A stretch of 64,000 bases of DNA from Gammaproteobacteria bacterium (GTDB lineage: Bacteria; Pseudomonadota; Gammaproteobacteria; SZUA-229), in assembly GCA_026195895.1 (NCBI GenBank), contig JAPHRO010000042.1, positions 19,086-83,085 of the forward strand, given 5' to 3'. Shown here piece by piece: positions 9,952 to 52,781 of this stretch (the stretch's first letter is position 1; each line of letters starts with the position of its first letter). The position numbers and the translations under genes are program-made. The notes under the pieces are model-generated. The model was not told where the DNA came from and searched no databases. It saw nothing but the letters and a program-made list of their open reading frames with translations.

Positions 9952-10040
9952 GATGGCAAATAATTATTTAAGTTATTGTTTTAGAAAATTTATATTGTTT
10001 TTTATTTATCTAAAAAAATAATAAGTAGCAGACAAAAACC

Positions 10041-10300: not shown

Positions 10301-10319
10301 GGGCACATACAATTTAAAT

Positions 10320-11804
10320 TTGGAGATTCACGCTGTGTCCAGCTCACAACTCAATCTGTTTTCCTTTAGCGGCAATACACGAATACTGCATTTCACCTGG
10401 TTTGCTTTCTTCTTAAGTTTTGTCATGTGGTTCAACCTGGCACCTTTTAAAGAATCGGTAATGGCCGCCTTTGACCTCACTGACCAGCAATGGAAAACTC
10501 TGCTGATTCTGAATATTGCGCTGACCATTCCGGCGCGCATTATCATCGGTATGCTGGTCGATAAATTTGGCCCCAGGATTATGTACAGCGCTCTGCTGTT
10601 CTCCTCGAGTCTGCTCTGTTTTGCTTTTGCCATGGCCGACAGTTTTGAGATGATGGCTATCATGCGTTTCCTGATGGGTTTCGTCGGGGCCGGTTTTGTT
10701 ATCGGCATTCGTATGATCGGCGAATGGTTCCCGGCTAAAACCGTTGGCGTTGCTGAAGGCGTTTACGGTGGCTGGGGTAATTTTGGTTCAGCGGCGGCAG
10801 CGATGTCACTGCCGACCCTGGCACTCATGTTCGGCGGTGACGATGGCTGGCGCTATGCAATTGCCTCTACCGGCGTGATTGCCCTGATCTATTCCGCGAT
10901 CTATTACTTTAACGTGCATAACACGCCAAAAGGCTCGACTTACTTCAAACCAAAAAAAACCGGCGCCATGGAAGTCACCAGCAAAAATGATTTTTATCTG
11001 TATGTGGTGATGAATATTCCCATGTACATCGCCCTGGCGGTGCTGAACTGGAAACTCGGCCCTGCTAATCTTGGCATGCTCACCGATACGGCCAGCACGG
11101 CGATTTACCTGATACTGTTTGCCATGTTCGTTTATCAATTTGCACAGATCTGGAAAATCAATAAACATATCTTTACCGAAGAAGTAGCTGAAATTCATCG
11201 CTATAAATTCAAACAGGTCGCGGTGCTGAACCTGGCCTACCTGGTGACCTTCGGTTCTGAACTTGCTGTGGTTTCTATGCTGCCTGGCTTCTTTATGGAT
11301 ACCTTTGAACTGACCCAGGTACTGGCGGGTACGCTGGCAGCCGGTTTTGCCTTTATGAATCTGGTAGCACGCCCCGGCGGCGGCCTGTTCAGCGACAGGT
11401 TTGGCCGCAAGAAAACCCTGATGTTCCTCCTCGGTGGCCTGACGATTGGTTATCTGATGATGAGTCAGATCACCTCCGGCTGGATAATCGCAGCAGCGGT
11501 TATGACTACGATGGCCTGTTCATTCTTTGTGCAGGCCGGTGAAGGTGCAGTATTCGCCATGGTGCCGCTGGTTAAACGTCGCATGACTGGACAGATTGCC
11601 GGCATGGCTGGCGCTTACGGTAACGTTGGTGGCGTGACCTTCCTGACCGTTTACTCCTTCGTCGAGCCGGCAACTTTCTTCATGGTGATTGCCGCAGCGG
11701 CCGTTGTAACCTTTGCGATCATTGCTATTTTTATGGAAGAACCTGAAGGCCATATAGCTGAAGTCATGCCTGACGGCACGGTAGAAATGATTGAGGTTTC
11801 ATAA
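10320..11804 (+). CDS. narK: MFS nitrate/nitrite transporter (NNP family, NarK/NasA type)
   Basis: 12-TM MFS with the NNP-family N-terminus and a GGWGNFG glycine-rich motif. It is divergent from the nir/nas operon. The true start is possibly GTG at 10335. Confidence 0.8.
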
Positions 11805-36518: not shown

Positions 36519-37421
36519 TTACTGAAAATACTCCATGATTGGTGTTAATACTATTTCACTGCCATTGACATCATAGATAGTCGAACTAAGCAATGTAAGA
36601 TTAGGCGAGGAACTCAAGCCTCGTGGATGGAGCACATAAATTTTTAAATAAGTATGATCAACCCCCTGTGGCGCAACAACATCAATAAACAGTTGATCCC
36701 CATTCTGGCGCCAGTAAACCATACGCTGTGTTTTACCAAATGCTCCTGTATTTGAGACTGAACCTCGTACTGTTGATTCTGGAACATAAATATTAATATC
36801 GTCTGGATTTAAAACAGTCTGATCAAAATCAATAACAAGCGAAGCGGCTCCAATCTCAATTCCATCATCAATGCCAAAGCTGATTTTAGCATGGGGTGCC
36901 GGTTCTAATTTTGTAAAATCTAATGCCAAATCAAGTGTTAGTGATTTACGCCAAAAGCTATCGTCAACACCAACACCAGGAATTATTTCCAGATTAATTT
37001 TATATGGTGCAGCAATACCTGAACTATCGTCATTCTTAGCGGGATCAACCGTCAAGTATGCACTTCCTGCAGGAACATTAGCGGGTATATCGACAACCAA
37101 AACAGTCTGCACAGGCTCATGCCCATTAAACCATGAAAAATAACTATCTATATAACGTGAATAATGTGTACCTTCAGCACGACCGTCAGCGCGTAGATTA
37201 AATACAGAACGCACCAAACCCAATGCCTGTAAATCCCATTCCGTTTCGTTAATATCTGTTAGAGTAACAAGCGTCGTTTCTTTACGAGCATTCTCAGACC
37301 CCCCAATCATTGCTGAAACCGTATCACCAGCACGCGCTACGGTTGGGAAAGTATTAACACCCGCACAGCCCTGTAATATCATTATGAGCATCACACCCAA
37401 AGCTGAAATAAACTTTATCAT
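36519..37421 (-). CDS. lipoprotein of unknown function (no C-terminal sorting tag)
   Basis: Lipobox ILQGCAG. A 300-aa beta-rich protein located between two sorting-tag genes. Confidence 0.5.
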   Translation of the reverse strand: MIKFISALGVMLIMILQGCAGVNTFPTVARAGDTVSAMIGGSENARKETTLVTLTDINETEWDLQALGLVRSVFNLRADGRAEGTHYSRYIDSYFSWFNGHEPVQTVLVVDIPANVPAGSAYLTVDPAKNDDSSGIAAPYKINLEIIPGVGVDDSFWRKSLTLDLALDFTKLEPAPHAKISFGIDDGIEIGAASLVIDFDQTVLNPDDINIYVPESTVRGSVSNTGAFGKTQRMVYWRQNGDQLFIDVVAPQGVDHTYLKIYVLHPRGLSSSPNLTLLSSTIYDVNGSEIVLTPIMEYFQ

Positions 37422-37732: not shown

Positions 37733-39148
37733 TTAATTAAGCTTTTTTCTTCTTGCTGCTCCAATTAAGCCTATCAATCCAGATCCGAACAACCAAACTG
37801 CCGCAGGTACAGGCACTGCACTAAGATCCTGAACAACTACACCTTCAAGGTTGACAAAATCACCATCAGTATTAAATGCGGATGCAGGAATACCCGACAT
37901 ATCACCATATTCAGTAAAATCAATTGCGTCAATTATGCGTAACCCATCGGCACGTAATATAAACCCATAACCTGAAAAAGCATTATTATGCAGCACAACA
38001 TTCTCCATCACCTCACCCGTTCTCGTATCGATTGCTTCAACAAAATCACCATTAGCATCATAAATCGCTTCTATATAGATTTCGTCAGCTGCATTAAATA
38101 CTTCGTCAATATTTTCCTGATGAGAAACAGTCAATGTAGAAGCATCGTATGTAGATGTATCTAAAAGACGAACAAAGACTCTACCTGGCACTGAACCGCC
38201 CCCCATAAAGGAGACCTGGTTATAGAAATCCTCATCAACCCCTGCTCCACCGACTTCATTCAGGCCCGTCGCAGGATTTACTGCGCCCGCTGTAGGATTG
38301 GTATTATTTACAACTGCATCAGCAGTGTAAGTATAGGTGGAACCATCTGGAAACTCAGTTTCAATAGTTAAGGAACCATAACTGCGCATCTGAAAATCAG
38401 GAACAATCTGCAGCGCCCCTTCACCTGGGGTGCCATCGCCTTCAAGACCCACCCTGCCCATATATGATTCAAAAGCAAAATCAAACTGAACCTGCCCGGC
38501 CATTGCCTCCAGCGCACCTGGATTGCTTGCAGTTACTGAACCACACCAGCCAGTCGCATCTGATAAGGCATACGGTTTAAATTGAATCGCCGTATCATAA
38601 GTACCATCGTCAACAAAGCGAGGATAACCAGCGGTTTCTGGGTCTGGGTCGGGATTGTTTAGATCCATCGTATATTCAAACGTACGATAGTATTCAAATG
38701 ACATGTCTTCTCGCCTAACCAGATAATCACCATCATAATCAATTTGCATATTATTGAACGTGGAGCCAGCAACAGTTGTATAAGCCTTATCATAAAAATT
38801 AACCTGTGAGTCCATACTCGCATCAGTATAAATTTCAGGATAACCATTACTAAATGTATAACCTGCATCAGGCGTTAAGCCATCTGGCCCGGTAGTTACA
38901 ACATGCTGAATTTGGCCTACACCACCGGTAGGATCAAGAGTATTTCCTTCAGCCAGACCACCAAAACCATTAACTGAACCGAAGTCCATTGCGGTACGAC
39001 CATCTGGACCAGCATAACCCCAGTCATCAAAAGTTGCGGTACCATTAGTGATAGACGTCACCCATACTTCGGCATTTGCTGCACCATTTGCTGATAACGC
39101 CAATAAAATAGCAAATTGAATTTTTTTTATCTTATTTAATTTCATCAT
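37733..39148 (-). CDS. secreted 471-aa protein with VPxPA-type PEP-CTERM sorting tag
   Basis: Has a signal peptide. C-terminus LSAVPVPAAVWLFGSGLIGLIGAARRKKLN. Confidence 0.75.
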   Translation of the reverse strand: MMKLNKIKKIQFAILLALSANGAANAEVWVTSITNGTATFDDWGYAGPDGRTAMDFGSVNGFGGLAEGNTLDPTGGVGQIQHVVTTGPDGLTPDAGYTFSNGYPEIYTDASMDSQVNFYDKAYTTVAGSTFNNMQIDYDGDYLVRREDMSFEYYRTFEYTMDLNNPDPDPETAGYPRFVDDGTYDTAIQFKPYALSDATGWCGSVTASNPGALEAMAGQVQFDFAFESYMGRVGLEGDGTPGEGALQIVPDFQMRSYGSLTIETEFPDGSTYTYTADAVVNNTNPTAGAVNPATGLNEVGGAGVDEDFYNQVSFMGGGSVPGRVFVRLLDTSTYDASTLTVSHQENIDEVFNAADEIYIEAIYDANGDFVEAIDTRTGEVMENVVLHNNAFSGYGFILRADGLRIIDAIDFTEYGDMSGIPASAFNTDGDFVNLEGVVVQDLSAVPVPAAVWLFGSGLIGLIGAARRKKLN

Positions 39149-39522: not shown

Positions 39523-40212
39523 TTAAGCAGCTTTACGACGACGCGCAACACCTGCCAGGCCAATCAGGCCAGAACCGAACAACCATACTGCTGCTGGAAC
39601 AGGAACTGCAGCTACTACACCTTCAAGATGCAGACCATAGCCAAAGCCTGAGAAACCACCTGATGGTACGATCGCCTGGTAATCAAGAGTAAAAGTATCA
39701 CCTACAGCACAATCTACCGCACAAGTCAGAGTCGCGTTAGCGCCGGCACCCATATCGATAGGACCGTCTTCTCCAGCGGCTACGTCACCCCACCATACAG
39801 TCCAGCCAGACATGTCGATTGAAGCAGTGGCACCAGAAGCTGAAGCAATAGTCAGTCCATCAGCATCAGAAGTGTAGTGCTCACCTGGGTTACCACCAAA
39901 AGACCAAACCAGATCAACTTCACCGCGAGCTTGAGCTGAACCCAAAGTAATACCATTAGCAGCATTTGCGATAATTACACGCTCTTCTTGAGCTAAAGTG
40001 CCATCGCCATTTGTATCCATTACAAAGTAACTGCCACCTGCTGTAGTAGTCGCACCAAAAGTACAGGTAGGATAAGTACCACCAGCCTGACATGCGCCAA
40101 TACCGTCATCAAAGTTAAGAACTGCATCAGATGCCAGTGTTGCGTTTGCGTTGCTGCTTACACCAGCAGTTAAAGCCAGAGCCACAGCTGAGCCAAGAAA
40201 TTTTTTATTCAT
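39523..40212 (-). CDS. secreted 229-aa protein with VPxPA-type PEP-CTERM sorting tag; its N-domain is paralogous to gene 42382..44232
   Basis: C-terminus VVAAVPVPAAVWLFGSGLIGLAGVARRRKAA. The N-domain DAVLNFDDGIGACQAGGTYPTC...MGAGANATLTCAVDCAVGDTFTLDYQAIVPSGGFSG aligns with the N-terminus of the 616-aa protein. Confidence 0.75.
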   Translation of the reverse strand: MNKKFLGSAVALALTAGVSSNANATLASDAVLNFDDGIGACQAGGTYPTCTFGATTTAGGSYFVMDTNGDGTLAQEERVIIANAANGITLGSAQARGEVDLVWSFGGNPGEHYTSDADGLTIASASGATASIDMSGWTVWWGDVAAGEDGPIDMGAGANATLTCAVDCAVGDTFTLDYQAIVPSGGFSGFGYGLHLEGVVAAVPVPAAVWLFGSGLIGLAGVARRRKAA

Positions 40213-40283: not shown

Positions 40284-40300
40284 AAGCAACGCCCGTGCCA
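40284..40300 (-). promoter_or_regulatory. sigma-54 (-24/-12) promoter for sorting-tag gene 39523..40212
   Basis: Reverse complement reads TGGCACG-ggcg-TTGCTT, a perfect match to the TGGCACG-N4-TTGCW consensus, about 70 nt upstream of the start codon. This is consistent with control by the sigma-54 activator PrsR. Confidence 0.6.
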
Positions 40301-41016: not shown

Positions 41017-42339
41017 ATGATAAACAAAAATTTAAAGCTGGTAACCGCCCTTGGGTGCGCACTTGGAATAGCCACGCCAGCATCAGTGTTTGCTACCAAC
41101 GGAATGTTCATGATCGGGTATGGAAATAAATCCCGGGGCATGGGTGGCGTTGGTATTACCATGACTCATGACACACTTGCCAGTGCCGCCAATCCAGCAA
41201 CCATGGCGTTTATTAAAGGGAATCAATTCGATATTGGCGGCGATATATTCAAGGCAAACGCAGAAGCTTCCCTGGGTGAAGATGGTGTTTATCTAGGACG
41301 CGTGACCGTTGAAAGCAAACCTGATCACATGGCGCTTGCTGATGGTCTCTATATGATGCCAAGTCTGGGAGCAAGCTGGAATAAAGGTGATTTAAGCTAT
41401 GGCTTTACCATGGTACCCGTGGGCGGCGGTGGCAGTCGCTATGAACCTAATATTTATAACTCTGTAATTACAGGTGCGCCTACCGATGAAAAAATGGGTG
41501 TCTCACTTATGGTAATGAACATTAATCCCACCATTGCCTATAAACTGGATGAGAATAACAGCGTTGGTGCCACACTAATCATCGGCGCACAAGTTTTTAA
41601 ATCCTATGGCCTTTCATATTTCCAGACATTTACCGAATCAGATTCGCCCGACCATCTAACCGACCAGGGTGCGGATATCGCCTACGGTGCGGGTATCCGT
41701 TTAGGCTGGATGGGCAAATTTATGGAAAATAAACTAAGCCTGGGTGCTGAATTCACCTCACAAACCTATATGAGTAAATTTGACGACTATAGTGAACTGT
41801 TTGCCGGTCAAGGTGAACTCAATACTCCCGGCAATATTGGCCTGGGTGCATCCTATCAATTTATGGACGATTTAACTGTGGCTTTAGATATCAACTACAT
41901 CATGTATGAAGATATTCCAGCTATTGCAAACCTTGGTCCCGGCCAGGGCACGGATGGTGCATTGTATATTACAGGACCAGAAACTAATCAGCTTGGTCTG
42001 GATGAAGGGCTCGGCTTTGGCTGGGGAAACCAGACTGTAATCAAACTGGGCGTTGTCTACGCATACGATACACGCTGGACATTACGTGGTGGCTGGAACT
42101 ATGCCAAAAGCCCGATTCATGAAGAACGGGACATCCTGTTCAGTATGGTTGCACCTGCCACTACCGAACATCACCTGACACTGGGCGCAACTTACCAATA
42201 TGACAAAGATATTGAGCTCAACTTCTCATATGGCCATGCTTTCGAAAATACACAATGGGGGCCCACTTATATTGGTGGCAGCGGTGAAATCTCCATGTCT
42301 ACAGATGCGCTCGGAGCAAGCTTGTCAATGAAATTTTGA
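41017..42339 (+). CDS. outer-membrane beta-barrel transporter of the FadL/TodX/OMPP1 family
   Basis: Signal peptide, then ATNGMFMIGYGNKSRGMGGVGI, typical of the FadL-family N-terminus. The protein ends in an aromatic residue (...MKF). Confidence 0.65.
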   Translation: MINKNLKLVTALGCALGIATPASVFATNGMFMIGYGNKSRGMGGVGITMTHDTLASAANPATMAFIKGNQFDIGGDIFKANAEASLGEDGVYLGRVTVESKPDHMALADGLYMMPSLGASWNKGDLSYGFTMVPVGGGGSRYEPNIYNSVITGAPTDEKMGVSLMVMNINPTIAYKLDENNSVGATLIIGAQVFKSYGLSYFQTFTESDSPDHLTDQGADIAYGAGIRLGWMGKFMENKLSLGAEFTSQTYMSKFDDYSELFAGQGELNTPGNIGLGASYQFMDDLTVALDINYIMYEDIPAIANLGPGQGTDGALYITGPETNQLGLDEGLGFGWGNQTVIKLGVVYAYDTRWTLRGGWNYAKSPIHEERDILFSMVAPATTEHHLTLGATYQYDKDIELNFSYGHAFENTQWGPTYIGGSGEISMSTDALGASLSMKF

Positions 42340-42381: not shown

Positions 42382-44232
42382 ATGCAAAACAAACAAAAAT
42401 TAATTAAACCAATCAGCGCCATGCTGTTACTGGCGTGTGGTACGCTGTCTCAACAGGCACAGGCAGCATTACCCGCCAATGCAGTTTTAAACTTCACCTC
42501 TGGCGTTGGCTCCTGCCAGGCGGGCGGAACCTATCCTGCCTGTAATTATGGTGCCACTACTGTTCTAACTGGCAGTTATTTTGCCATGGATCTAAACACG
42601 CCTATTGGTGTTTTTGCCGAAGAAGAACGAACACTCATTGAAACAGCCGGTACTGGCGTTACTTTGGATACAGCCCAGGTAGCAGGCGCCATTGATCTTG
42701 ACTGGTCCTTCGGCGGTAATTTGGGACGACACCTTACCCTAAACGCATTGGCATACACTTCAACAGGATCTAACACCTATAACATTAATATGGCCGGCTG
42801 GACTGTTAACTGGGGAACTGAAGGCAACATCGATATGGGTGCGGGTGCTGCTGCAGTATTAACTTGTGCGGTTGACTGTACTATAGGTGATACGTTTACT
42901 CTTGATTACACTGCAGTTGTGCCGACTGGCAGCTTCAGTGGCATCAATTACCAGTTATATCTTGAAGGCACCATAGGTGTAGACAATACTGCTCCCGTAT
43001 CAAACAATGTAAATATTTCAAGGTTACCTGCAGCAAGTCATACCTGGACACCTGATGTAAGTGATGCTGACATGAATACTTTAACTTGCAACATCGAAAC
43101 TCAAGGATCAAGTGGTACTGCTGCTGTACTATCTGACTGTAGCTCGGGTACATATACACCAGCATCAGGCGCAGGTTTCACAGGCGCAGATTCCTTTACA
43201 TATAGTTCCAATGATGGCTTCGTTGATTCAAATCCACATGGAATTGTTTCTGTTACAGTGTTAGCCGATCCGCCACCATCATGCCAAAATTTACCCGCTT
43301 TGCCTGGTTCAACAACGGCTGCGGGCGTAGCAACCAATGTTACTATTGATGTCACAACTGTTTGTACTGATGCAGCTGGCAGCATAGTCGCCTCAACCCT
43401 GGCCGTATCCAGTACCAGCACGAACAATGGAAATGTTTCTGTTGACCCGGGCACAGGCATTGTTACTTATACGCCAGCATTTGGTTTTGCCGGCACAGAC
43501 ACATTCACCTATACAGTACAGGATGACAATGCTGGCACCTCAACACCTGCCACAGTCACCATGACTGTAGAAACAAACAGCGCTGGTTCACCAACTTCTC
43601 CTGATGGCACACTCGCTTGTGGTACAACTGCAAACTCAGCAGGTAGCACATCATGTGTTGTAACGATGGAAAATATTGGAGTTAATGACAACGGCTTTAG
43701 TAGAGCCCAGGGAATAGCTCAATCTTGTGTAGGCGGCTGTTTTGATTTCACTGTCAGCGGACTAACAGCTGGTAGTGAAGCACGAATCATATTACCTCTA
43801 AGCACTGCAATTCCTGCAGCCGTTGCGGACGATGCCGGTCACAAAATTGTATATAGAAAACTAATGCCTTCAGGATGGCAAGACTTCGATACATCAGACA
43901 ATAATGCAATTGCATCAGCAGCAGGCAGTCCTTCAGGAGCTGATATTATTTGCCCACCCGCTGGAAATGCAAGTTATATATCTGGTCTAACTACAGGTGA
44001 CCGCTGCATACAACTGACGATAACTGATGGCGGCCCTAATGATGCAGATGGCACAGCAAATGGCACCGTGGTTGATCCTGGTGGTGTTAGTGAAACATTT
44101 TTCACCAGTGGAACAGACGGTTGCAGCATGTCTAAAACATCCGTAAATGCACGTGAGCGAGCTGACTGGTGGTTGGTTGCCGGCTTCTTAGGTCTATTGG
44201 GATTATTTAGACTTACACGCAACAAGGCATAA
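42382..44232 (+). CDS. 616-aa secreted surface protein. N-domain paralogous to the VPxPA-tagged 229-aa protein. Central Ig-like Thr/Ser-rich repeats. Distinct C-terminal tag GCSMS-(12 aa)-TM-RLTRNKA
   Basis: Signal peptide. AVLNFTSGVGSCQAGGTYPACNYGATT...MGAGAAAVLTCAVDCTIGDTFTLDYTAVVPTGSFSG matches gene 39523..40212. The tail ...TDGCSMSKTSVNARERADWWLVAGFLGLLGLFRLTRNKA replaces the VPVPA motif with a Cys-containing motif. A CPBP protease gene follows 6 nt downstream. Confidence 0.7.
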   Translation: MQNKQKLIKPISAMLLLACGTLSQQAQAALPANAVLNFTSGVGSCQAGGTYPACNYGATTVLTGSYFAMDLNTPIGVFAEEERTLIETAGTGVTLDTAQVAGAIDLDWSFGGNLGRHLTLNALAYTSTGSNTYNINMAGWTVNWGTEGNIDMGAGAAAVLTCAVDCTIGDTFTLDYTAVVPTGSFSGINYQLYLEGTIGVDNTAPVSNNVNISRLPAASHTWTPDVSDADMNTLTCNIETQGSSGTAAVLSDCSSGTYTPASGAGFTGADSFTYSSNDGFVDSNPHGIVSVTVLADPPPSCQNLPALPGSTTAAGVATNVTIDVTTVCTDAAGSIVASTLAVSSTSTNNGNVSVDPGTGIVTYTPAFGFAGTDTFTYTVQDDNAGTSTPATVTMTVETNSAGSPTSPDGTLACGTTANSAGSTSCVVTMENIGVNDNGFSRAQGIAQSCVGGCFDFTVSGLTAGSEARIILPLSTAIPAAVADDAGHKIVYRKLMPSGWQDFDTSDNNAIASAAGSPSGADIICPPAGNASYISGLTTGDRCIQLTITDGGPNDADGTANGTVVDPGGVSETFFTSGTDGCSMSKTSVNARERADWWLVAGFLGLLGLFRLTRNKA

Positions 44233-44237
44233 AAGCC

Positions 44238-44768
44238 TTGAGCAGAAACACTCTGCTCATCATCAACGGCGCTGCCCTCACCGGCTGCGCCGTTTTTGAT
44301 TATGCCTGGCGTACAACATTAGTGACCAGTTTGATGTTGCTGCTGCCCTTTATTGACCGAACATGGTCATTACCTGAATTTCATATCAATAAAATAAAAT
44401 TGATATTCTGGTCAATAAGCATTGTATCAGGAATATTACTCGTTACATTCAAACCGGATTATGCAACCGCAGCACTTGCTACACTGGTATTAACGGCATT
44501 ACCGGAAGAATGGTTTTTTCGTAGCTATTTTATGATGCGTATTGAAAGAGCAGGATTGCAGCCATACCAAGCCAACATTATTACTTCTCTGTTCTTTGCT
44601 TTGCTTCACCTGCCCGCGCAAGGCTGGTTTGGTTTAAGTGTATTTATTCCATCTTTGATATACGGGTGGATATTTCAGAGGACTAAAGATATTGTGTTAG
44701 TAATTTTGTTACATGCGCTGTCTAATATAGTGTTTTTTATTTATATACGGGACTATCTAAACCTGTAG
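44238..44768 (+). CDS. CPBP-family intramembrane metalloprotease (CAAX-protease/Abi-like), PEP-CTERM-locus type
   Basis: The motifs EEWFFRSYF (EExxxR), LLHLP and HALSNIVFF are the three CPBP signature motifs; 176 aa polytopic. A CAAX-protease-related family is known to occur in PEP-CTERM/exosortase loci. Confidence 0.75.
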   Translation: MSRNTLLIINGAALTGCAVFDYAWRTTLVTSLMLLLPFIDRTWSLPEFHINKIKLIFWSISIVSGILLVTFKPDYATAALATLVLTALPEEWFFRSYFMMRIERAGLQPYQANIITSLFFALLHLPAQGWFGLSVFIPSLIYGWIFQRTKDIVLVILLHALSNIVFFIYIRDYLNL

Positions 44769-44884: not shown

Positions 44885-45985
44885 CTATACCAGTTTCTTT
44901 GTTTTGATTTTACAATAAAGAATTTCGTATGTTGTAGTTGGGCCACAGCCAAATAACGGCGAGTTTCTCTGCTCTTCTATGTTACCACTACCGTGCAATA
45001 TTATTCTCACTGGTTCCAGCCCCTGTTTTGTTAAATACTCAAACAAAGCGGCCATCAAATTTATACGCCCTTCAAATTCTTTTAACGAATGCCCTGCACC
45101 AATTGAGATAACAAAATCAGATACAGTGTCCAATACTGGCGCGAGTTGAGTAAAATATTTTACTACATCCGGTATAATTTCATGATCAATACGAATTCCC
45201 GCGACCAAATTACATGGCCTCCAGTTTTTTTTATTCATCAGGCCGGGTATTTTTTTCATGGCACTATCTGCATTTTCATTAAGCGCCAATATCCACTCCG
45301 AATAATTACGATTAAATGACGTATAAAGCTCATCAAAGGCCGGATCATTATCAATTAAAACCACATTTTCTGGTCGGTTTATAGATTTTCCAAAAACAAT
45401 CATGTTATTGCTATTATCTAATATATTAACCTTCCGCCTTATTACAGGGTTCATGTGTATTCCATCAAGTTCACGATTGGCATTCCCAGCTGCAAACGAT
45501 AACTGCCTCTGGGTACTGCTATTAGATGATAACAGCCCCATCATACGCAGTATTTGCATTGACCTGACCACATCTGTTCTATGCACACGCGCTTGTAATT
45601 CATTAAGTTTATCTGCAGGCGCATCACTAAATTGAGATAAACCCTGACTTATCAGGGCATGCATACCTTGACGATTAATGGCATGTACTGGCAACTCCCA
45701 TCCATCAAATAATTCACAACAAGCGGCCAAATGCGAATAAAGAAATATTTTCTTTAATTCCGGTACCTGATTACTTCCATAAATAACATTTGTCCCATTG
45801 GACAATTTTTTTACAAACTTTTTACTATTAAGTCTTTTAGCCCTGTCTCGAATGAATAATTCATAATTTTCAAAATCTTCAAGAATTTTCGCCAACATGC
45901 CTGATTCGGCAATTGCTGCGAGGCCTTCACCATCGACATTAAAAGATTTTTTGAGATCTTCAAACATTTCCTTGCCTGTATTCAT
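44885..45985 (-). CDS. hypothetical 366-aa protein, AT-rich, no recognisable domain
   Basis: ORF with coding-like amino-acid composition. It is flanked by the CPBP protease and the LanM-like gene on the same strand. Confidence 0.45.
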   Translation of the reverse strand: MNTGKEMFEDLKKSFNVDGEGLAAIAESGMLAKILEDFENYELFIRDRAKRLNSKKFVKKLSNGTNVIYGSNQVPELKKIFLYSHLAACCELFDGWELPVHAINRQGMHALISQGLSQFSDAPADKLNELQARVHRTDVVRSMQILRMMGLLSSNSSTQRQLSFAAGNANRELDGIHMNPVIRRKVNILDNSNNMIVFGKSINRPENVVLIDNDPAFDELYTSFNRNYSEWILALNENADSAMKKIPGLMNKKNWRPCNLVAGIRIDHEIIPDVVKYFTQLAPVLDTVSDFVISIGAGHSLKEFEGRINLMAALFEYLTKQGLEPVRIILHGSGNIEEQRNSPLFGCGPTTTYEILYCKIKTKKLV

Positions 45986-46054
45986 TTTGTTGCCTAATTA
46001 TTTGACCCTGAGAGGAGTATCTATCTTTGATGCGCCTTTATTATTTATAAAAAA

Positions 46055-47773
46055 CTAATCTGCCTTACCTATTTCATTCAATGATTGCAGAAGATATTTT
46101 TTCTGTTCTTTAAGTTTAGAATTGTCCATCGTTTTTACACGATGCAAAACCAATTCATAACCGGATAATTCAAAAATATCATCAAATTTAGTTTTATCTT
46201 CCTTATTCAATCCCCTGGCTGTACTTTTCACAGTAAACCTGGGCACATCTAGACGCGCTAGTATTGCTAATTCTTTTTTGGCAATATCTTGAGGAAGACC
46301 TTTTGAGAAGACAGATGGAAATTTATTACATAATTGATATATATAATCCACATATACCGCGCCATTTTTTAGTGCTGCTGGTACAACAGCAGAATGAATT
46401 ATATGCAAATAGGAACCTGTCCTGCGCATATTAAAACGCACATCAAGCTCTTTAAATTCATTTAATGGACTATCATCCGAAAGCAGATTTTCTTTTTTTT
46501 CCTGAATAAGCTTATAGGCATACTCAAAACCATCAATAACGAAGTCTCTATATTTATGTACACGTTGATATTTTTCATTTATAAAGGGCAGGGCCATGTT
46601 TTCATTTTCCGGATCAAAAAATCCAACCGCACTGATATCCCCTGTTTTTCCTGTACGCCTTTCCTCTATGATCGGAAACAATCTAGTACCAATAACTGAT
46701 TCATAATAATTATTCTGAATATCATAAATGGATTGATCTTTAAATTCGGCGTTATTTCTATCGACATATAGTGGATAAAATAACATTTCATGATCAATAA
46801 AAAAGGGGGCATTAGCATGAGCTATTAGATTGTCGTGGTGATAGTCTGATCCTCTAATAATATACAAAATAGCTCCGAACATGCCTATTCTTTGATAAAA
46901 TTGTTCTATGTCTTTTTCAGATTCGCAGGGTTTATTACTAATAAATTTGGACCAACCATAGGTAAGTTTATTAATTACAGGAACTGAACTCAATTTTAAT
47001 TCAGCTTTATTATCTTGCTCGTTAAACCAATCAACAAATTTCTTGAACGCATGCTCGGCAAGCATGTTCTTGGGTTTGTATACTATTTTGTTTTTATGAT
47101 CGAAACTGACAATTACCACAGTTTGACCGTATTCATGCGGATCAGACAAATCAAGTTGAAGTTCAGAAATAGTTTTAATAACTTCTTCACCAGTAATATT
47201 ACTATGCCTATCAAAAAACACCTGATCTAGTTGCGCATAATCAGCTATTAGTCGCTTGAACAATATTGATGTTGCCTGAATCCAGTAATTTGTATGCATT
47301 GCCAATAATCTTGCCAGCACATTATATTCTTTAAATAATCGTAATGGATTAGCATATATCTGTTTAATATACCCCTCAATATCCATACCAGAAAATTGAG
47401 AACTGTCTTGTTTTTCTTTATAGCTAATTGATATGGTATATGAACAAATATAAACCAGTTTTTTCGCTAGTTGATTTTCCAGATCCAGTTTGCATTTATC
47501 ATCAAGAGCCCCATAAAAGACACCAGACAATGATAATAACTCTATTGTGGCGACTTTTATAAAGGGCGTGATTAGTGCAATATAAAAATCATCATCATTG
47601 CCTTGCTTATATTTATTAGGACCGTTATAAGGGATTCTTTTATACTGCTCAATAGCCGACGATAATAATATCATCCATCGCGCAGTATTGTTACCATCTG
47701 GCACAGTTTCAAAAGGAAACCTTGAATTATTAATAATACCAAGATATTTTTTATTAAGTTTAATTTTTTTCAT
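46055..47773 (-). CDS. stand-alone LanM-N-terminal-like (DUF4135, lipid-kinase-fold) dehydratase-domain protein with no LanC cyclase domain
   Basis: Motif GSDYHHDNLIAHANAPFFIDHEMLF fits the D-x-H-x-x-N ... D-x-E catalytic pattern of class II lanthipeptide synthetase dehydratase domains. The 572-aa length corresponds to the dehydratase half only. Confidence 0.5.
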   Translation of the reverse strand: MKKIKLNKKYLGIINNSRFPFETVPDGNNTARWMILLSSAIEQYKRIPYNGPNKYKQGNDDDFYIALITPFIKVATIELLSLSGVFYGALDDKCKLDLENQLAKKLVYICSYTISISYKEKQDSSQFSGMDIEGYIKQIYANPLRLFKEYNVLARLLAMHTNYWIQATSILFKRLIADYAQLDQVFFDRHSNITGEEVIKTISELQLDLSDPHEYGQTVVIVSFDHKNKIVYKPKNMLAEHAFKKFVDWFNEQDNKAELKLSSVPVINKLTYGWSKFISNKPCESEKDIEQFYQRIGMFGAILYIIRGSDYHHDNLIAHANAPFFIDHEMLFYPLYVDRNNAEFKDQSIYDIQNNYYESVIGTRLFPIIEERRTGKTGDISAVGFFDPENENMALPFINEKYQRVHKYRDFVIDGFEYAYKLIQEKKENLLSDDSPLNEFKELDVRFNMRRTGSYLHIIHSAVVPAALKNGAVYVDYIYQLCNKFPSVFSKGLPQDIAKKELAILARLDVPRFTVKSTARGLNKEDKTKFDDIFELSGYELVLHRVKTMDNSKLKEQKKYLLQSLNEIGKAD

Positions 47774-47931: not shown

Positions 47932-50307
47932 CTACAATTTTTTTATAATCAGTTCTGCTTCTTCATGCCCCTGAAACTTTCTGCCACTTTCAAGCGCTTT
48001 CCCCAAAAAAACTCTAGCGGCATCCTGATTTCCAATTTTGTAATATGCCATACCAAGGTGATATTGAAATATAGGAATATCACTCGCTTTTTCCACTACT
48101 TTCTCAAGAATTGGTACCGCTTTGTCAATCTCACCGGTTTTATAATAAATCCAGCCTATCACATCTAGAAACCCAGGATTTGTTGAATCTTCAAAGGGCA
48201 TAGCAAGTTCTTTTGCTCTTTTCAGACTTTCTGCATCACCTTTTCTGTCTGCCAAAAGAAGCGCAAGATTATTTACAGCCAAAGTATTACTGGAATCAAT
48301 AATCAGAATTTTATCATAGATATTTATCGCCTTTTCATGATCATCCTGACGCTCATAAATTTTCGCTAACTTTGCCATAATCTGAGTATCTTTCGGCAAA
48401 ATTCCGAGAGCCTGTTGATAAATACGAATAGCACCACTTTCATTTCCTTGTTTAAGATAAAGATTCGCAAGACTTATATAAGGTAATGACCATTTGCTGT
48501 TTAATTCAATGGCTTTATGTATTGCTTTTTCTGCCTCCGAATTCTTCTTCTGCGCCAGATAGACTTCACCCAATAACTCATAAGGTATTGCATTTTCTGC
48601 ATGCTCCTTAATCAGCGCATTCAATCTATTAATTGCATTATCGTACTGCTTTAGTTGTAAATGAAGTTTAATAATGGTTGCCATCAATGGCAATAATTTA
48701 TTTGATCTTTTTAGCGCAGCATCATACTCTGTGAAAGCCTTCGGAAATTGCTTTGTAGCGGCATAATAATCCCCCTTCAATTGGTAGCCGTCGGGTCTTG
48801 CTGGATGTGTGGACTTGATTGTATCAATCATTTCACTTACTTCATCCATATCATGCCTGGCTATTGCATATTTTACCTTCATCTTTAATGCATCAATATG
48901 TTTGGGCGAAACTGTCAGTAATTTATTGATTTCTTTTTCAGCTACATCAAGCCTCCCTGCTTTTTGCAAATAATTTGCATAGTTTATATACATCTCTGGA
49001 TTACCAGGCGAATCAGTAATCCCTCTTCTCAGTACTTCCTCAGCCAATTCCGGTTCATTGTTTTTCATGTGTGCAACTGATAATAATGATACAGCTTTGA
49101 CTAAACCCGGCTGATGCTTAATAACAGTTCTAAATGAGCTAATAGCAACGTTGTAGTCCTTCTGGTCAAAAGCGACTCTCCCCTTCATAAATAACGCATC
49201 ATTATCACCCGGATTAGTATCCAGAACTTCCTTAATAAGCTGGCTTGCAACATCAGGATCTTTTTGTTTTAAAGCTATTTTAGCCAGTTTATTTCTTGCC
49301 TTAAGACCATTGGGCTTATAGCCATCAAGTTTGATAATTTCCTGATAGACGTCCACTTCTTTTCCAGGTCTCATTGTTTTATACAGCTCAGCCAATACAA
49401 AGCGCAATTTGAACAATTCAGGATTTTTTTCGATGGCCGATAGCAACGTTTTTTCTGCTCCTTTTACATCTTTGCGCTTAGCCTGGAATTCAGCTAAATA
49501 CAAATACCCTTTCTCATCATATGGATTTATAGATATAATATTCCGAACAGCCTGCTCCGCCTTGTCAAGCTCATCACGTCGTGTATAAAATGAGGCCAGA
49601 TTGATATGAGAAGAAATATTTTCAGGGTCAAGAGAGATAATATCTTTTAATACTATTTCTGCATTTTTATAATCTTTTATCCTGGCATAAACCTCTGCCA
49701 GCTGAACTCTCAGGCTTTGCTCATGCGGCAAAGAATTTATGCCTTTTTTTAGAACTTCGATCGCCTTATCATTTTCTCTGGCTTTTGTATAAAGCACCGC
49801 AAGGGTACGAATTGCATCAATTTGAGCGGGATCTTCTGTAAGAAGATTTTTTGCATAAGGTATTGCTTCTTTATCATTTGTCTGGAACATTACAAACAGT
49901 TTTAGCAGCTTTCCATCCATACTTTCTGGATCAATCGAAACAATCACATCTAAAATTTCTTTTGCCTTGTCAACATCCCTGCTTCTTAGGTAAATCCGTG
50001 CCAGTTTTGCCTGTGCTTTCGTATGAGTTAAATCAAGCTCTACCGCCTGCTTATAATTGGCAAAAGCCTGACGTAAATTTTGGCGTTGTTCTTCAAGCAA
50101 TCCCATCATGTAATAAGCTTCAGAATATTTTGGATCTATCTGTAATGTATTTTTAAACTCTATCCTGGCTTTGTCATAATTGCCTTCCTTAAAGTAAGCC
50201 CTGCCCTTCTCCAGATAAGACTCTTTACGCGCATCTTCACCACTGCAACCTAATAGCATAATAGCCAAACAAACAATTGAGATTAATCTAAGTTTAAGAA
50301 ATCTCAC
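47932..50307 (-). CDS. prsT: PEP-CTERM system TPR-repeat lipoprotein (PrsT family), copy 1
   Basis: Lipobox MLLGCSG, then about 20 TPR units over 791 aa. The N-terminus is collinear with copy 2 (YLEKGRAYFKEGNYDKARIEFKN...). Confidence 0.7.
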   Translation of the reverse strand: MRFLKLRLISIVCLAIMLLGCSGEDARKESYLEKGRAYFKEGNYDKARIEFKNTLQIDPKYSEAYYMMGLLEEQRQNLRQAFANYKQAVELDLTHTKAQAKLARIYLRSRDVDKAKEILDVIVSIDPESMDGKLLKLFVMFQTNDKEAIPYAKNLLTEDPAQIDAIRTLAVLYTKARENDKAIEVLKKGINSLPHEQSLRVQLAEVYARIKDYKNAEIVLKDIISLDPENISSHINLASFYTRRDELDKAEQAVRNIISINPYDEKGYLYLAEFQAKRKDVKGAEKTLLSAIEKNPELFKLRFVLAELYKTMRPGKEVDVYQEIIKLDGYKPNGLKARNKLAKIALKQKDPDVASQLIKEVLDTNPGDNDALFMKGRVAFDQKDYNVAISSFRTVIKHQPGLVKAVSLLSVAHMKNNEPELAEEVLRRGITDSPGNPEMYINYANYLQKAGRLDVAEKEINKLLTVSPKHIDALKMKVKYAIARHDMDEVSEMIDTIKSTHPARPDGYQLKGDYYAATKQFPKAFTEYDAALKRSNKLLPLMATIIKLHLQLKQYDNAINRLNALIKEHAENAIPYELLGEVYLAQKKNSEAEKAIHKAIELNSKWSLPYISLANLYLKQGNESGAIRIYQQALGILPKDTQIMAKLAKIYERQDDHEKAINIYDKILIIDSSNTLAVNNLALLLADRKGDAESLKRAKELAMPFEDSTNPGFLDVIGWIYYKTGEIDKAVPILEKVVEKASDIPIFQYHLGMAYYKIGNQDAARVFLGKALESGRKFQGHEEAELIIKKL

Positions 50308-50782: not shown

Positions 50783-52186
50783 CTAAACACTAATATTTAA
50801 TTTTTGAATTAAATCATAAAGTGTTGGACGACTCACCCCCAACAATTCAGCTGCTGGTGCGACTTTACCATTAGTATTATTCAAAGCTCGCTGAATTACT
50901 TCCCGCTCAGCAGCTTCACGAACTTCTCGTAAGTCAAAAGAGTGGCTACCCGATTCTTTTTCTGCTACATCAAGCTCAAGATCTTCAGCAGTTATGTGTT
51001 TTCCATCAGCCATAATAACTGCACGCTTAATCCTGTTTTTTAATTCACGCACATTACCCGGCCATTCATGGGCATCAATTGCAACTAGCGCATCTTTAGT
51101 AAAACCTTTTAATCTTTTGCCCTGCTCTTCATTCATTTGGTCAAGAAATGCACGGGCTAGCAGCAATACATCCCCATCTCTATCTTTAAGCGGCGGAATA
51201 TTTATTGGGATTTCGTTAATACGATAATAAAGATCTTCCCTGAACTCTCCTTTTTCGATTTTATCTTCCAGATTCTGGTGGGTGGCACAAATAACACGCA
51301 CATTGACCGGTATTTCTTCACGACCACCGATACGTTCTACTACACGCTCCTGTAAAAAACGTAATAATTTGGCCTGCAACGGTAAGGGCAACTCACCCAT
51401 TTCATCTAAAAATAAAGTGCCACCTTCTGCGTATTCAATTTTTCCTGGTGTGGTTTTTGCGGCACCGGTAAACGCACCTTTTTCATAACCAAACAGTTCA
51501 CTTTCCAGCAGATTTTCAGGTATGGCTGCACAGTTAATAGCTACAAAACGCCCGCTTATGGAAGGGTTTTTCCCATGCAATGCACGGGCACATAATTCTT
51601 TACCTGTCCCGCTATCACCTAACAATAAAACGGTGGCATCTGATGGAGCGACTTTTTCTACCCTTTGACATACCGTCTGCATCTGCGGACTACTGGACAC
51701 CAGACCTTCCATCGGCATATCGACTTTATGCATGCTAAGTTTGCGATTTTCTTCTTCTAACTCATACACATGATAAGCACGATTAACTATCTGGTTTAAT
51801 ACATCTGAATCAATAGGTTTCTGATAAAAATCATAAGCGCCAGAGGCTACTGCAGCGACAGCATTCTCACGCTCATCATTACCACTAACAATAATGACCT
51901 TTGTATTAGGCGCAACAGATAAAATTTGTTCCAGGGTAGCTAATCCTTCTGTACTTCCATCCGGGTCTGGAGGTAAGCCAAGATCAACCGTTGCCACGGG
52001 AGGATGATGTTTTTTGATTTGTTTAATTGCTGATTCCCGGTCACCGGTAACAATAACTTCGAAATCTTCGAAGCTCCATTTCATTTGCTTTTGTAGACCG
52101 GGATCGTCTTCTACCACGAGTACTTTTTTGTTGTTTTCCATATTAAATATTTTGTAATAAATTTCGACAAGTTGATGAGTGTGCAC
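50783..52186 (-). CDS. prsR: sigma-54-dependent response regulator (PrsR-type, NtrC family): receiver + AAA+ sigma-54 activation domain + HTH
   Basis: Receiver domain (VLVVEDDPGL...D), Walker A GDSGTGKE, a GAFTGA-type loop (GAFTGAAKT), ESELFGYEKGAFTGA and a C-terminal Fis-type HTH. Confidence 0.8.
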   Translation of the reverse strand: MHTHQLVEIYYKIFNMENNKKVLVVEDDPGLQKQMKWSFEDFEVIVTGDRESAIKQIKKHHPPVATVDLGLPPDPDGSTEGLATLEQILSVAPNTKVIIVSGNDERENAVAAVASGAYDFYQKPIDSDVLNQIVNRAYHVYELEEENRKLSMHKVDMPMEGLVSSSPQMQTVCQRVEKVAPSDATVLLLGDSGTGKELCARALHGKNPSISGRFVAINCAAIPENLLESELFGYEKGAFTGAAKTTPGKIEYAEGGTLFLDEMGELPLPLQAKLLRFLQERVVERIGGREEIPVNVRVICATHQNLEDKIEKGEFREDLYYRINEIPINIPPLKDRDGDVLLLARAFLDQMNEEQGKRLKGFTKDALVAIDAHEWPGNVRELKNRIKRAVIMADGKHITAEDLELDVAEKESGSHSFDLREVREAAEREVIQRALNNTNGKVAPAAELLGVSRPTLYDLIQKLNISV

Positions 52187-52364: not shown

Positions 52365-52781
52365 TTAAATAGTTTCTTTGTAAGCTTTATATGCACGTTC
52401 GATAATCATATTTAATTTCACCAAATCCACCGGCTTGGCAAAAAACTCAAATGCCCCAGAATCAACAGCACGTTTTGCATTCGTTTTCTCATCAGAGCCT
52501 GAAACGATAACTACTTTGGTGCCTGGTGCCTCTTCCAGAATTTGCTTTAATATTGCGAAACCTTCATTGCTGCCTTCAGCATCAGGCGGCAGTCCTAAAT
52601 CCAGTGTCACTACCGCTGGATGGTATTTACTAAACTGCTCCAGTGCATCCGCCCTGTTTTCTGCAGTCACTACATCAAAGCCCTCGAATCCCCACTTTAA
52701 CTGGCTACGGATGCCTGGATCATCATCAACAATAAGTATTTTTGGATTTTCAGCCATCTTGTTTTCTCTTTTCACGCTCAT
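52365..52781 (-). CDS. single-domain response-regulator receiver, paralogous to the PrsR receiver domain
   Basis: KILIVDDDPGIRSQLKWGFEGFDVVTAENRADALEQFSKYHPAVVTLDLGLPPD is collinear with the PrsR N-terminus (VLVVEDDPGLQKQMKWSFEDFEVIV...VATVDLGLPPD). Its start overlaps the prsK stop by 32 nt. Confidence 0.75.
   Translation of the reverse strand: MSVKRENKMAENPKILIVDDDPGIRSQLKWGFEGFDVVTAENRADALEQFSKYHPAVVTLDLGLPPDAEGSNEGFAILKQILEEAPGTKVVIVSGSDEKTNAKRAVDSGAFEFFAKPVDLVKLNMIIERAYKAYKETI

Follow-up and report, generated by a model that had tools for sequence, protein, structure and literature searches.

Does the window analysed here (the whole 64-kb stretch of DNA) contain, inside an exosortase locus, a second sorting system of myxosortase-like type, formed by a surface protein with a Cys-containing C-terminal tag and the CPBP intramembrane protease encoded beside it? 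An earlier note on this DNA had suggested as much. We find it probable that these genes belong to a dedicated myxosortase-type C-terminal sorting cassette of three co-transcribed genes, in which cleavage, the cleavage site, the modification of the Cys, and surface exposure are all inferred.

Genomic Setting of the Cassette

The surroundings are indeed those of an exosortase locus, as had been claimed, with XrtD (61460..63049, 594 bits against a cutoff of 400), PrsK (52750..54891), PrsR (50783..52186), PrsT (47932..50307), and three VPVPA-tagged proteins. PEP-CTERM/EPS loci with PrsK, PrsR, and PrsT are the constant setting of the cassette in the loci examined, and its hosts are dozens of uncultured sulfur-cycle bacteria. 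Inside these XrtD/PrsKRT PEP-CTERM loci the predicted unit is three genes, namely a FadL/TodX-family 14-stranded outer-membrane barrel as first gene (41017..42339, forward strand), the tagged client, and the CPBP protease; the barrel lies directly upstream of the client in 34 of 37 testable cases, and the unit is therefore a three-gene cassette. The barrel, absent from the earlier note, is a conserved third component. It fulfilled both the PF03349 profile match and the expectation of a 14-stranded barrel with an N-terminal hatch.

From the opposite strand, a LanM-like gene pair (44885..47773, reverse strand) converges on the cassette, and a protein with a LanM N-terminal domain (TIGR03897, 346 bits) is encoded 1.3 kb downstream of the CPBP gene. 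CPBP/Abi proteins are common in bacteriocin loci, and the protease could accordingly be read as an Abi-type bacteriocin-immunity or peptide-maturation protein of this pair. We regard that as extremely unlikely, given that the two gene sets are convergent on opposite strands and that more than 50 other loci keep client and CPBP without the LanM-like or 366-aa genes. The LanM-like gene is kept only in the closest relative (L001) and the neighbouring 366-aa gene only in L001 and L008; a link between protease and LanM was rejected because the LanM-like genes are conserved only in the closest relatives.

The Tagged Client and Its VPLPA-CTERM Paralogue

The client (42382..44232, forward strand) is an adhesin-like protein of 616 aa with Big_9/Cadherin_5 domains, a tandem-95 repeat, and a choice-of-anchor U domain (43987..44088, forward strand; NF041766, 52 bits against a cutoff of 32), whose best stretch, residues 536–569, sits immediately N-terminal to the tag. 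The same anchor domain was found in six of ten other clients tested. A Sec signal peptide (42382..42465, forward strand; MQNKQKLIKPISAMLLLACGTLSQQAQA, followed by A at the presumed cut) could be read from the sequence, and a comparable one precedes every client with a complete N-terminus. The motif LLLAC within it led us to consider the client as an N-terminal lipoprotein, a reading that was rejected because this Cys is not conserved among clients.

The N-terminal domain of approximately 195 aa (42385..42969, forward strand) is common to VPLPA-CTERM paralogues. As previously pointed out, it is shared with a 229-aa protein encoded on the reverse strand (39523..40212), to which the first 200 aa of the client are 54% identical (E = 5e-58). 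This 229-aa protein, which carries a VPLPA-CTERM tag (TIGR03370, 34.5 bits against a cutoff of 25.35), is a substrate of the exosortase XrtD; together with a further paralogue (37733..39148), it matches the TIGR02595 or TIGR03370 tag models. The domain occurs with either tag in L008 and L086–L092, and a VPLPA-tagged paralogue of about 240 aa occupies the equivalent position in L008, L086–L090, and L092. The swap of tags between paralogues is thus real and recurs in other genomes.

The only perfect sigma-54 −24/−12 element in the 64-kb window (TGGCACGGGCGTTGCT; 40285..40300, reverse strand) lies 73 nt upstream of the gene for the 229-aa protein. Perfect sites are found at the equivalent place before the divergent paralogue in L086, L087, L089, and L092, and a perfect match is also present in L001 and L066. 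No sigma-54 promoter was found before the cassette on the forward strand, the sole perfect site serving the divergent VPLPA gene.

A Cys-Containing C-Terminal Tag

The sorting tag itself comprises residues 580–616 (44119..44229, forward strand), begins with G580-C581-S-M-S (Cys codon at 44122..44124), and reads GCSMS-KTSVNARERAD-WWLVAGFLGLLGLF-RLTRNKA, where the hydrophobic part WWLVAGFLGLLGLF is 14 aa long and is followed by the basic end. The layout given earlier stands as regards GCSMS and the RLTRNKA end; the spacer had been put at 12 aa and counts 11, being polar and ending in R-A-D.

When the same tail was sought on other proteins, 68 distinct sequences were recovered on otherwise unrelated bodies, and these could be aligned on the Cys without gaps. 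The Cys is present in 68/68 and preceded by Gly in 67/68, with S/T at +1 (68/68), S/T at +3, P-V at +6/+7, R/H at +12 (65/68), D/E at +14 (66/68), W at +15 (64/68), F at +21 (64/68), and a basic cluster at +29 to +34. The polar spacer is conserved at 11–13 residues, and the short hydrophobic helix starts with Asp-Trp and is followed by the Arg/Lys cluster. Only one tagged ORF is present in the 64-kb window. The clients of L015 and L023 resemble that of the window solely over the last 36–40 aa, and on this comparative evidence the tag behaves as a portable module. The recurrence of the tail, with fixed spacing and almost always beside the same protease family, is far beyond chance.

The sampling has its own limits. 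A 40-aa tail profile run against a collection of 5.8 billion proteins returned two short fragments only, so that the ratio of clients to proteases could not be estimated in this way. The metagenome scan used a narrow tail alignment ([EQ]RADWWLV), the first one being too diverse, and this profile biases the metagenome sample towards one tail sub-type.

The suggestion that the tag is of no recognised type was borne out by the HMM checks, in which all curated cutoffs remained unreached. The window tail matched none of the sorting-signal models (MYXO-, JDVT-, GlyGly-, PEP-, and VPLPA-CTERM) at E ≤ 10, and the best tail scores over two scans were about 17–19 bits for JDVT-CTERM (cutoff 27) and 13.5 for MYXO-CTERM (TIGR03901, cutoff 20). 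For GlyGly-CTERM there was no match at E ≤ 10 to the window tail or to 25 tails, bearing in mind that HMMER filters may mask very weak ones.

Could the tail nevertheless be a PEP-CTERM-type signal that has diverged and is served by the XrtD encoded in this locus, with the CPBP unrelated to its processing? The cassette is always found in PEP-CTERM/EPS loci with PrsK, PrsR, and PrsT, and in its hydrophobic and basic parts the tail looks like the VPLPA tags. Even so, we give this reading almost no credence: neither a VPxPA nor a PEP motif is present in the tail, the models for the P-E-P or V-P-x-P-A signals (TIGR02595 and TIGR03370) leave it unmatched and clearly match the three neighbouring paralogues, and the linkage of the tail to the CPBP gene is near-obligate.

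The CPBP Protease

The third gene (44238..44768, forward strand) encodes a 176-aa CPBP/Rce1-like glutamic intramembrane protease that is myxosortase-like. It lies directly downstream of the client, as stated previously, with a gap that we measured at 5 nt and not the 6 nt reported. Its TTG start is supported by the N-terminus "SRNxLLIINGAxLTGCAVF", conserved in the homologues. The expected Rce1 fold was confirmed. The protein scores 72.7 bits with Pfam PF02517 (Rce1-like; cutoff 22.4), and the catalytic motifs EExxxR (E90-E91-xxx-R95, 44505..44522), FxxxH (F120 and H124), and HxxxN (H159 and N163) do not vary among 37 sequences, a sign that proteolytic function has been under selection. Run as a sequence profile against the PDB, the protease alignment gave no match.

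Among the NCBIfam models the best were Mrt_core, MrtP, MrtC, and MrtJ, all below their cutoffs. The top-ranked one, Mrt_core (NF040914), reached 68.5 bits with a cutoff of 100 and is matched by all 37 relatives (best E = 2e-24); since this score is under the cutoff, the predicted place of the protease in the myxosortase branch of the CPBP family rests on relative ranking. The CAAX-protease family known to accompany PEP-CTERM loci, which the earlier note had brought up, can be set aside: TIGR03008 gave 27.4 bits against a cutoff of 81.05, and the protease is therefore not of that family. It belongs instead to a discrete family of about 73 clusters (50% identity, E ≤ 1e-30, all full length), beyond which there is a drop to core-only matches, and to which three conserved N-terminal helices are peculiar. 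Counting of loop charges suggested that the N-terminus is inside, with EExxxR close to where helix 4 reaches the cytoplasm.

Two RNA hairpins (44224..44259, forward strand; MFE −19.1 kcal/mol, z = −4.0 against shuffles) cover the client stop, the putative SD, and the TTG of the protease, and the inverted repeat was also picked up in a separate analysis. They possibly serve translational coupling or attenuation.

Linkage of Tail, Protease, and Barrel

Genomes with this CPBP family carry the tail, and the association holds from either side: starting from the protease, the tail was directly upstream in 21 of 24 full-length CPBP genome loci, and starting from the tail, 26 of the 27 metagenome loci that extended 600 nt or more downstream had the CPBP family there. 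Of the testable tagged ORFs (n = 58), 47 had the CPBP gene no more than 300 nt away, seven had it farther off in the locus or in fragments, and four had none; a CPBP within 300 nt was what we expected of a dedicated, JDVT-like system, and this expectation was met. As negative control, the tail was absent from 18 other loci (L025–L040, L042, and L043), mostly core-only CPBP matches from Myxococcota or deltaproteobacteria.

Adjacency to the protease is frequent, not universal. Four tagged clients, each followed by 700 nt or more of sequence, had no CPBP in the DNA covered, which was ±8 kb for L088, L092, and L086 (from the cultured Thiohalobacter sp. IOR34) and the 4 kb downstream for L064; for these four, the gene for the protease lies elsewhere unless the tag can work without it. 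The earlier note had named two outcomes that would refute its proposal, a tail belonging to an established tag type and genomes with the CPBP family that lack the tail, and neither check refuted it. That client and CPBP form a protease-substrate couple is strongly supported by the conservation of the tail, the unrelated bodies that carry it, and the gene linkage, with cleavage as such remaining an inference.

The barrel shows its own linkage to the client. In the seven loci found by searching with the barrel, a tagged client was beside it in all seven, and three loci found in this way have the barrel and the tagged protein and no nearby protease. One may consider that the barrel and the tagged protein are the actual unit, the tail serving as a signal that docks or anchors the client at the FadL-type barrel, or as no more than a membrane anchor, and the CPBP being an optional accessory for quality control, release, or turnover instead of the sorting enzyme. 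We judge this unlikely, without dismissing it. The CPBP is kept in nearly all the tail-first loci, its invariant catalytic motifs speak for selected proteolysis, and an invariant Gly-Cys beside a CPBP is the signature of other Cys-type sorting systems; moreover, two clients and a CPBP are encoded in the Desulfobulbia locus L012, where the barrel is missing.

Proposed Mechanism

In the sorting cassette that we favour, the client would be exported by Sec and lose its signal peptide, to remain fixed in the inner membrane through the tag helix, the basic end lying in the cytoplasm, as the sequence of the tag implies. The invariant Cys would then be modified, probably by lipidation, by analogy with CAAX/Rce1 substrates and with the published MYXO-CTERM model. 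The CPBP is presumed to recognise the tag within the membrane and remove the helix, an inference from family membership, intact motifs, and tight gene linkage. Finally, the processed client might be handed to the FadL-type barrel, or dock there, and be put on display in the exopolysaccharide matrix, two steps for which there is nothing but gene linkage. The whole would run parallel to the exosortase sorting of the VPVPA-tagged paralogues with the same N-terminal domain.

Two aspects of this scheme do not fit easily. The tag Cys is 13–14 residues away from the hydrophobic helix, a larger distance than MYXO-CTERM is described as having, and it is therefore not obvious how an active site inside the membrane could cut "just after the Cys". 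Besides, the suggested cytoplasmic-side position of EExxxR and a periplasmic Cys are not reconciled.

The role of the barrel in the cassette is pure inference. FadL relatives release hydrophobic molecules laterally into the outer membrane, and FadL-fold outer-membrane proteins take part in protein sorting, namely PorV of the type IX secretion system and BamG of the Bacteroidota BAM. By sequence, the cassette barrel is nearest to the small-molecule channels (TodX/FadL), not to PorV. A speculative and rather doubtful extension is that the three genes could provide a self-contained route of surface display without type II secretion, in which the protease would free a Cys-lipidated adhesin and the barrel would insert or thread its lipidated C-terminus, anchoring it on the outer face. 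If true, a FadL-fold channel would be an outer-membrane translocon or anchor for lipoprotein-like cargo, and the cassette would for the first time offer a genetic approach to the passage of Cys-type C-terminal tags across the outer membrane.

It was not until 2023–2025 that Cys-type C-terminal signals with CPBP processing proteases came to be recognised, and the cassette adds a further, uncatalogued pair of signal and protease. Being compact, with three genes including a candidate outer-membrane partner, it could be moved as a whole into E. coli. Exosortase and myxosortase-like systems would here stand side by side on paralogous surface proteins of one exopolysaccharide/floc locus, and two such parallel systems bear on how the host bacteria build their matrix. 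Annotation pipelines currently give all three cassette proteins generic labels (the client, MCW9014350.1, is named at NCBI only as "Ig-like domain-containing protein"), and new tag and protease models would re-annotate around a hundred protein clusters.

Comparison with Known Systems

With the PEP-CTERM/VPLPA-CTERM systems of XrtD, the cassette has in common the neighbourhood (XrtD, PrsK, PrsR, PrsT, and EPS export), a tripartite tag, and, for VPLPA-CTERM, the N-terminal domain that its clients share with VPLPA-tagged paralogues. It differs in having G-C-S where those tags have V-P-x-P-A, and a glutamic CPBP protease where they have a cysteine exosortase.

The MYXO-CTERM/MrtX system is the only member with experimental proof of cleavage, MrtX cleaving MYXO-CTERM in a Cys-dependent manner in M. 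xanthus and E. coli, and the order proposed for it is lipidation, cleavage, and surface display (Guo, Haft and Wall, mBio 2025, PMC11980579). A Cys-containing tripartite tag and a CPBP of the same branch are found in both. However, MrtX is a housekeeping enzyme with dozens of unlinked clients, whereas the cassette CPBP is gene-linked; the MYXO-CTERM Cys (often GCGC) abuts the helix, the N-terminal region of MrtX is different and longer, and neither MYXO model was met (NF040593 for MrtX, 49.5 against 180 bits; TIGR03901, no tail above the score given earlier).

The JDVT-CTERM/MrtJ system (NF033191/NF033192) is a dedicated adjacent pair, and the defining mark of its tag is a near-invariant Asp-Pro nine residues after the Cys, inside the helix (Haft, 2023, bioRxiv 10.1101/2023.06.07.544157). 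The resemblance raises the question of whether the cassette is a plain member of this described system and nothing new. Both are adjacent pairs with a single Cys and an acidic helix start, both occur in Gammaproteobacteria, five of 25 tails weakly match JDVT-CTERM (best E = 8.6e-4, with 16.9 bits as the top score among those listed), and the window protease obtains 57.5 bits with the MrtJ model NF033192. Yet that model requires 75 bits, a cutoff reached neither by the window protease nor by its relatives (best of 37, E = 8e-18) nor by any of ten borderline CPBPs scanned. The JDVT-CTERM model, with no match to the window tail, stays short of its cutoff in the remaining ones, and the weak alignments require a five-residue insertion; in place of Asp-Pro nine residues after the Cys there is Pro at +6 and Asp-Trp at +14/+15. 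The NCBI pipeline, moreover, names the cassette proteins only generically, and no conserved outer-membrane partner was reported for JDVT-CTERM (bioRxiv 10.1101/2023.06.07.544157). All this makes simple membership in the JDVT-CTERM/MrtJ system very unlikely.

As a separate system, then, the cassette departs from JDVT-CTERM by a spacer five residues longer, Asp-Trp instead of Asp-Pro, and additional conserved positions (S/T at +1/+3, P-V at +6/+7, R/H at +12, and F at +21), and from MrtJ by three N-terminal helices of its own in the protease, the FadL-type gene, and the embedding in PEP-CTERM/EPS loci. The likenesses are nonetheless considerable: both are dedicated systems of Pseudomonadota with one or few clients and sporadic distribution, the client gene adjoins that of a small CPBP glutamic intramembrane protease, and in both the tripartite tag contains one invariant Cys and opens its helix with a conserved acidic residue. 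The myxosortase analogy drawn at the outset consequently holds for the branch of the protease and not for MYXO-CTERM as nearest relative of the tag; the closest precedent is JDVT-CTERM/MrtJ.

The client protein and its exosortase locus

The 616-aa protein at 42382..44232 (+) and the CPBP protease gene next downstream (44238..44768, +; 176 aa, TTG start) were both confirmed as ORFs. The protease does start close behind its neighbor, as the earlier note had it, but its ORF begins five bases past the stop codon and not after a 6 nt gap. The larger protein, here called the client, starts with a Sec signal peptide and an N-terminal domain of some 195 aa; repeats of the Big_9/Cadherin-like and tandem-95 types and a choice-of-anchor U domain (52 bits, cutoff 32) come next, before a tail composed of G-C-S-M-S, KTSVNARERAD, WWLVAGFLGLLGLF and RLTRNKA, the spacer being of 11 aa, one less than first counted. 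The proposed tag swap holds, since the client N-terminal domain is shared (54% identity, E=5e-58) with the 229-aa protein at 39523..40212 (-), which ends in a VPLPA-CTERM tag instead. Two adjacent RNA hairpins (44224..44259, +; -19.1 kcal/mol, z=-4.0) span the client stop codon, a putative Shine-Dalgarno and the protease TTG start; judging from the window sequence only, they could tie translation of the protease to that of the client, or hold it down relative to it.

Around this gene pair is a true exosortase locus, as had been claimed, with XrtD (61460..63049; 594 bits, cutoff 400), PrsK (52750..54891), PrsR (50783..52186), PrsT (47932..50307, -; 337 bits, above the curated cutoff of 312) and three VPVPA-tagged proteins. 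A second PrsT-like TPR protein (55217..57625, -) scores 309 bits, just under the cutoff of 312, and the two PrsT-like proteins flank PrsR and PrsK. In GenBank, the three proteins of the cassette (client, protease and the barrel described below; MCW9014349-51, from a Gammaproteobacteria MAG) carry generic names only.

A separate branch of CPBP proteases

The protease matches Pfam Rce1-like with 72.7 bits, and its top NCBIfam matches are myxosortase models, every one under its cutoff: Mrt_core (68.5 bits, cutoff 100), MrtP (68.1, cutoff 250), MrtC (62.1, cutoff 195), MrtJ (57.5, cutoff 75), MrtX (49.5, cutoff 180) and MrtS (46.4, cutoff 130). The CAAX-related family known to co-occur with PEP-CTERM, which the earlier note mentioned, was ruled out because the protease reaches just 27.4 bits on the corresponding model, TIGR03008 (cutoff 81).

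At least 160 homologues were found, nearly all supplied by metagenomes and MAGs. When 1.84 billion cluster representatives were scanned in full with HMMER, 73 protease clusters appeared at E<=1e-30 and about 100 matches were full-length, below which matches were core-only; those sampled there were MrtC-like myxosortases, and none of the sampled proteins reached the MrtJ cutoff. From this drop and the lack of any sampled match at the MrtJ cutoff we infer, on sequence comparison, that the family is a small, discrete and uncurated branch beside the myxosortases. By computation, the CPBP catalytic apparatus and fold are intact: in 37 aligned homologues the catalytic E90, E91, R95, F120, H124, H159 and N163 never vary, and conservation of the N-terminus extends back to the TTG start. 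This N-terminus, MSRNTLLIINGAALTGCAVF (44238..44300, residues 1-20), contains a lipobox-like L-T-G-C whose Cys (C17) most homologues keep and some exchange for S, I or G, next to an invariant A18; most likely this is merely the first transmembrane helix.

A distinct C-terminal tag

The impression of an unrecognized tag type stood up to HMM searches, in which the window tail matched no sorting-signal model even at E<=10. Among 25 homologous tails, five touched JDVT-CTERM (highest listed score 16.9 bits, best E-value 8.6e-4; cutoff 27), with alignments that required a 5-residue insertion, and six touched MYXO-CTERM (<=13.5 bits; cutoff 20), all under the cutoffs. When 68 distinct tails were anchored on the Cys (position 0, 68/68), the consensus was G at -1 (67/68), S/T at +1 (68/68), M/I/L at +2 (67/68), S/T at +3 (62/68), P at +6 (51/68), V at +7 (53/68), R/H at +12 (65/68), D/E at +14 (66/68), W at +15 (64/68), F at +21 (64/68) and an R/K cluster from +29 to +34. 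A conserved polar spacer of 13 residues separates the Cys from the helix. In its published definition (Haft, bioRxiv 10.1101/2023.06.07.544157), JDVT-CTERM has one Cys and, nine residues further on, an almost invariant Asp-Pro, whereas the window-type tag has its acidic residue at +14, followed by Trp. Judged by its consensus, the tail is a distinct tag laid out on the same plan as JDVT-CTERM.

Linkage of tail and protease

Starting from the protease, a search in which each GTDB species was represented by one genome yielded 24 full-length relatives, and the tail is borne by the ORF immediately upstream in 21; two exceptions lie at or near a contig edge (L003, L022) and the third is a pseudogene-like fragment (L025). 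No such tail was seen in the 18 other loci of this search (L025-L040, L042, L043), mostly core-only CPBP matches from Myxococcota or deltaproteobacteria. Starting from the tail, 39 loci were retrieved from metagenomes with the peptide pattern [EQ]RADWWLV, and the CPBP family is downstream in 26 of the 27 that had >=600 nt past the client stop. Overall, 58 of 70 non-duplicate tagged ORFs had >=700 nt of downstream sequence; 47 of these have the CPBP no more than 300 nt away, seven have it fragmented or at another place in the locus, and four have none. The proposed protease-substrate couple is thus supported, cleavage itself being inferred. In several tail-first loci, transposase or toxin-antitoxin insertions separate or split the CPBP gene. 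Inserted genes, among them an IS200-like transposase and PIN- or RelE-type toxin-antitoxin-like ORFs, displace or split it and leave the client intact in L069, L078, L080, L081, L083, L085 and L064, and an insertion hotspot apparently lies downstream of the client.

Conservation, portability and linkage of the tag are established computationally. The clients of L015 and L023 resemble that of the window over the last 36-40 residues only, and the rest of their sequence hits no curated family at E<=0.001; signal peptides are present in all clients whose N-terminus is complete; two clients share one protease in L004, L012 and L046; and a single MAG (JALSUJ01) has three separate client-protease pairs (L006, L009, L011). 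Because of these unrelated bodies, signal peptides, multiple clients and repeated cassettes, the tail has, as far as sequence can tell, the typical features of a portable sorting signal served by its own enzyme. The arrangements vary: a tandem pair of clients ahead of the protease (L004), clients on both sides of it and no barrel in a Desulfobulbia locus (L012), or a second client 5 kb off on the opposite strand (L046). In L090, a further large ORF past the protease, which may be another client, runs off the locus with its tail out of view.

An outer-membrane barrel as third component

Directly upstream of the client lies a gene missed by the earlier note, encoding a FadL/TodX-family outer-membrane barrel (41017..42339, +). 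It scores 72 bits against Pfam Toluene_X, matches TodX over its full length and has the FadL fold by computation (AF2 model, pLDDT 87.6). Where upstream DNA suffices, the barrel gene is found <=400 nt ahead of the tagged gene in 34 of 37 cases; it is missing there only for the second gene of the L004 tandem pair and in the Desulfobulbia locus. A barrel-first search returned 859 homologues; in all seven contexts inspected a tagged client adjoins the barrel, CPBP being in the locus in four (L087, L089, L090, L091) and not within 8 kb in three (L086, L088, L092), so the barrel-client link is at least as tight as that between client and protease. One of the latter, L086, is from the complete genome of the cultured Thiohalobacter sp. 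IOR34 (CP128988.1, 2592618-2609910). In this locus (coordinates 8001-11366), the barrel and client (tail SGCSIAKAPVDPLQHGEWWLLGGLLALLGLKRSKV) are followed by ~680 nt of REP-like repeats at the usual place of the protease gene. The locus may be naturally "protease-less", or the protease gene may have moved, the absence of a CPBP applying to the surrounding 8 kb.

Neighborhood, regulation, and taxonomic spread

In many loci the cassette is flanked by PrsK, PrsR, PrsT or EPS export genes (Poly_export, Wzz, ParA-like, AAA ATPase); it is therefore a regular part of PEP-CTERM/EPS loci in mostly uncultured, largely sulfur-oxidizing Gammaproteobacteria, its carriers including Sulfuricaulis, Thiohalophilus, Thioalkalispiraceae, Thiohalobacter and Ca. 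Muproteobacteria. In the window, L008, L086-L090 and L092, the cassette has a divergent neighbor, a ~240-aa paralogue of the client N-domain with a VPLPA tag. The sole perfect sigma-54 -24/-12 element of the window (TGGCAC-N5-TTGCW; 40285..40300, -) lies 73 nt upstream of this gene, and perfect sites at the equivalent position precede the paralogue in L086 (6841-6856), L087 (6815-6830), L089 (2322-2337) and L092 (7462-7477); L001 (518-533) and L066 (316-331) each have a perfect site as well. No perfect site lies ahead of the cassette itself in the window. Such a promoter fits, and suggests, PrsR/sigma-54 control of the paralogue.

Also in the window, a 366-aa and a 572-aa protein are encoded at 44885..45985 (-) and 46055..47773 (-), respectively. 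Of a LanM lanthipeptide synthetase, the 572-aa protein has the N-terminal portion only (DUF4135, dehydratase-type), without the LanC cyclase domain, and its neighbor has no family match; both genes are conserved in L001, and in L008 the 366-aa gene comes after the protease. A 674-aa protein (33741..35765, -) with thrombospondin-type-3-like repeats weakly matches the model of the MtsC cell-cohesion MYXO-CTERM protein (61 bits, cutoff 350), and near it is a 300-aa protein (36519..37421, -) without family match. The corresponding region of L086 (48-2962) has 669-aa and 300-aa genes beside VPLPA-tagged genes, a positional likeness only.

Proposed mechanism and comparison with known systems

The interpretation as protease and substrate is supported; that the tag is cut, that its Cys is modified and what the barrel does are inferred without experiments. 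The client would be exported by Sec and tethered by the tag helix, basic end inside, and its invariant Cys would be modified; the published MYXO-CTERM model proposes that a host enzyme, for instance Lgt, lipidates the Cys before cleavage, and MrtX cleaves in E. coli (PMC11980579). The CPBP protease would then remove the helix, and the processed client would be handed over to the outer membrane. The barrel could act as translocon or anchor, or it could merely work together with the mature adhesin.

No description of this system was found in the literature searched, nor in NCBIfam release 20. Like JDVT-CTERM/MrtJ, it pairs a CPBP protease with a dedicated tag that is encoded next to it and has a single Cys. 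Those defining tests of JDVT-CTERM/MrtJ that were applied here all failed: both HMM cutoffs (protease and tail) were missed, and the DP motif with its spacing is absent. Unlike JDVT-CTERM/MrtJ, moreover, the cassette adds a conserved outer-membrane partner and is constantly associated with exosortase loci.
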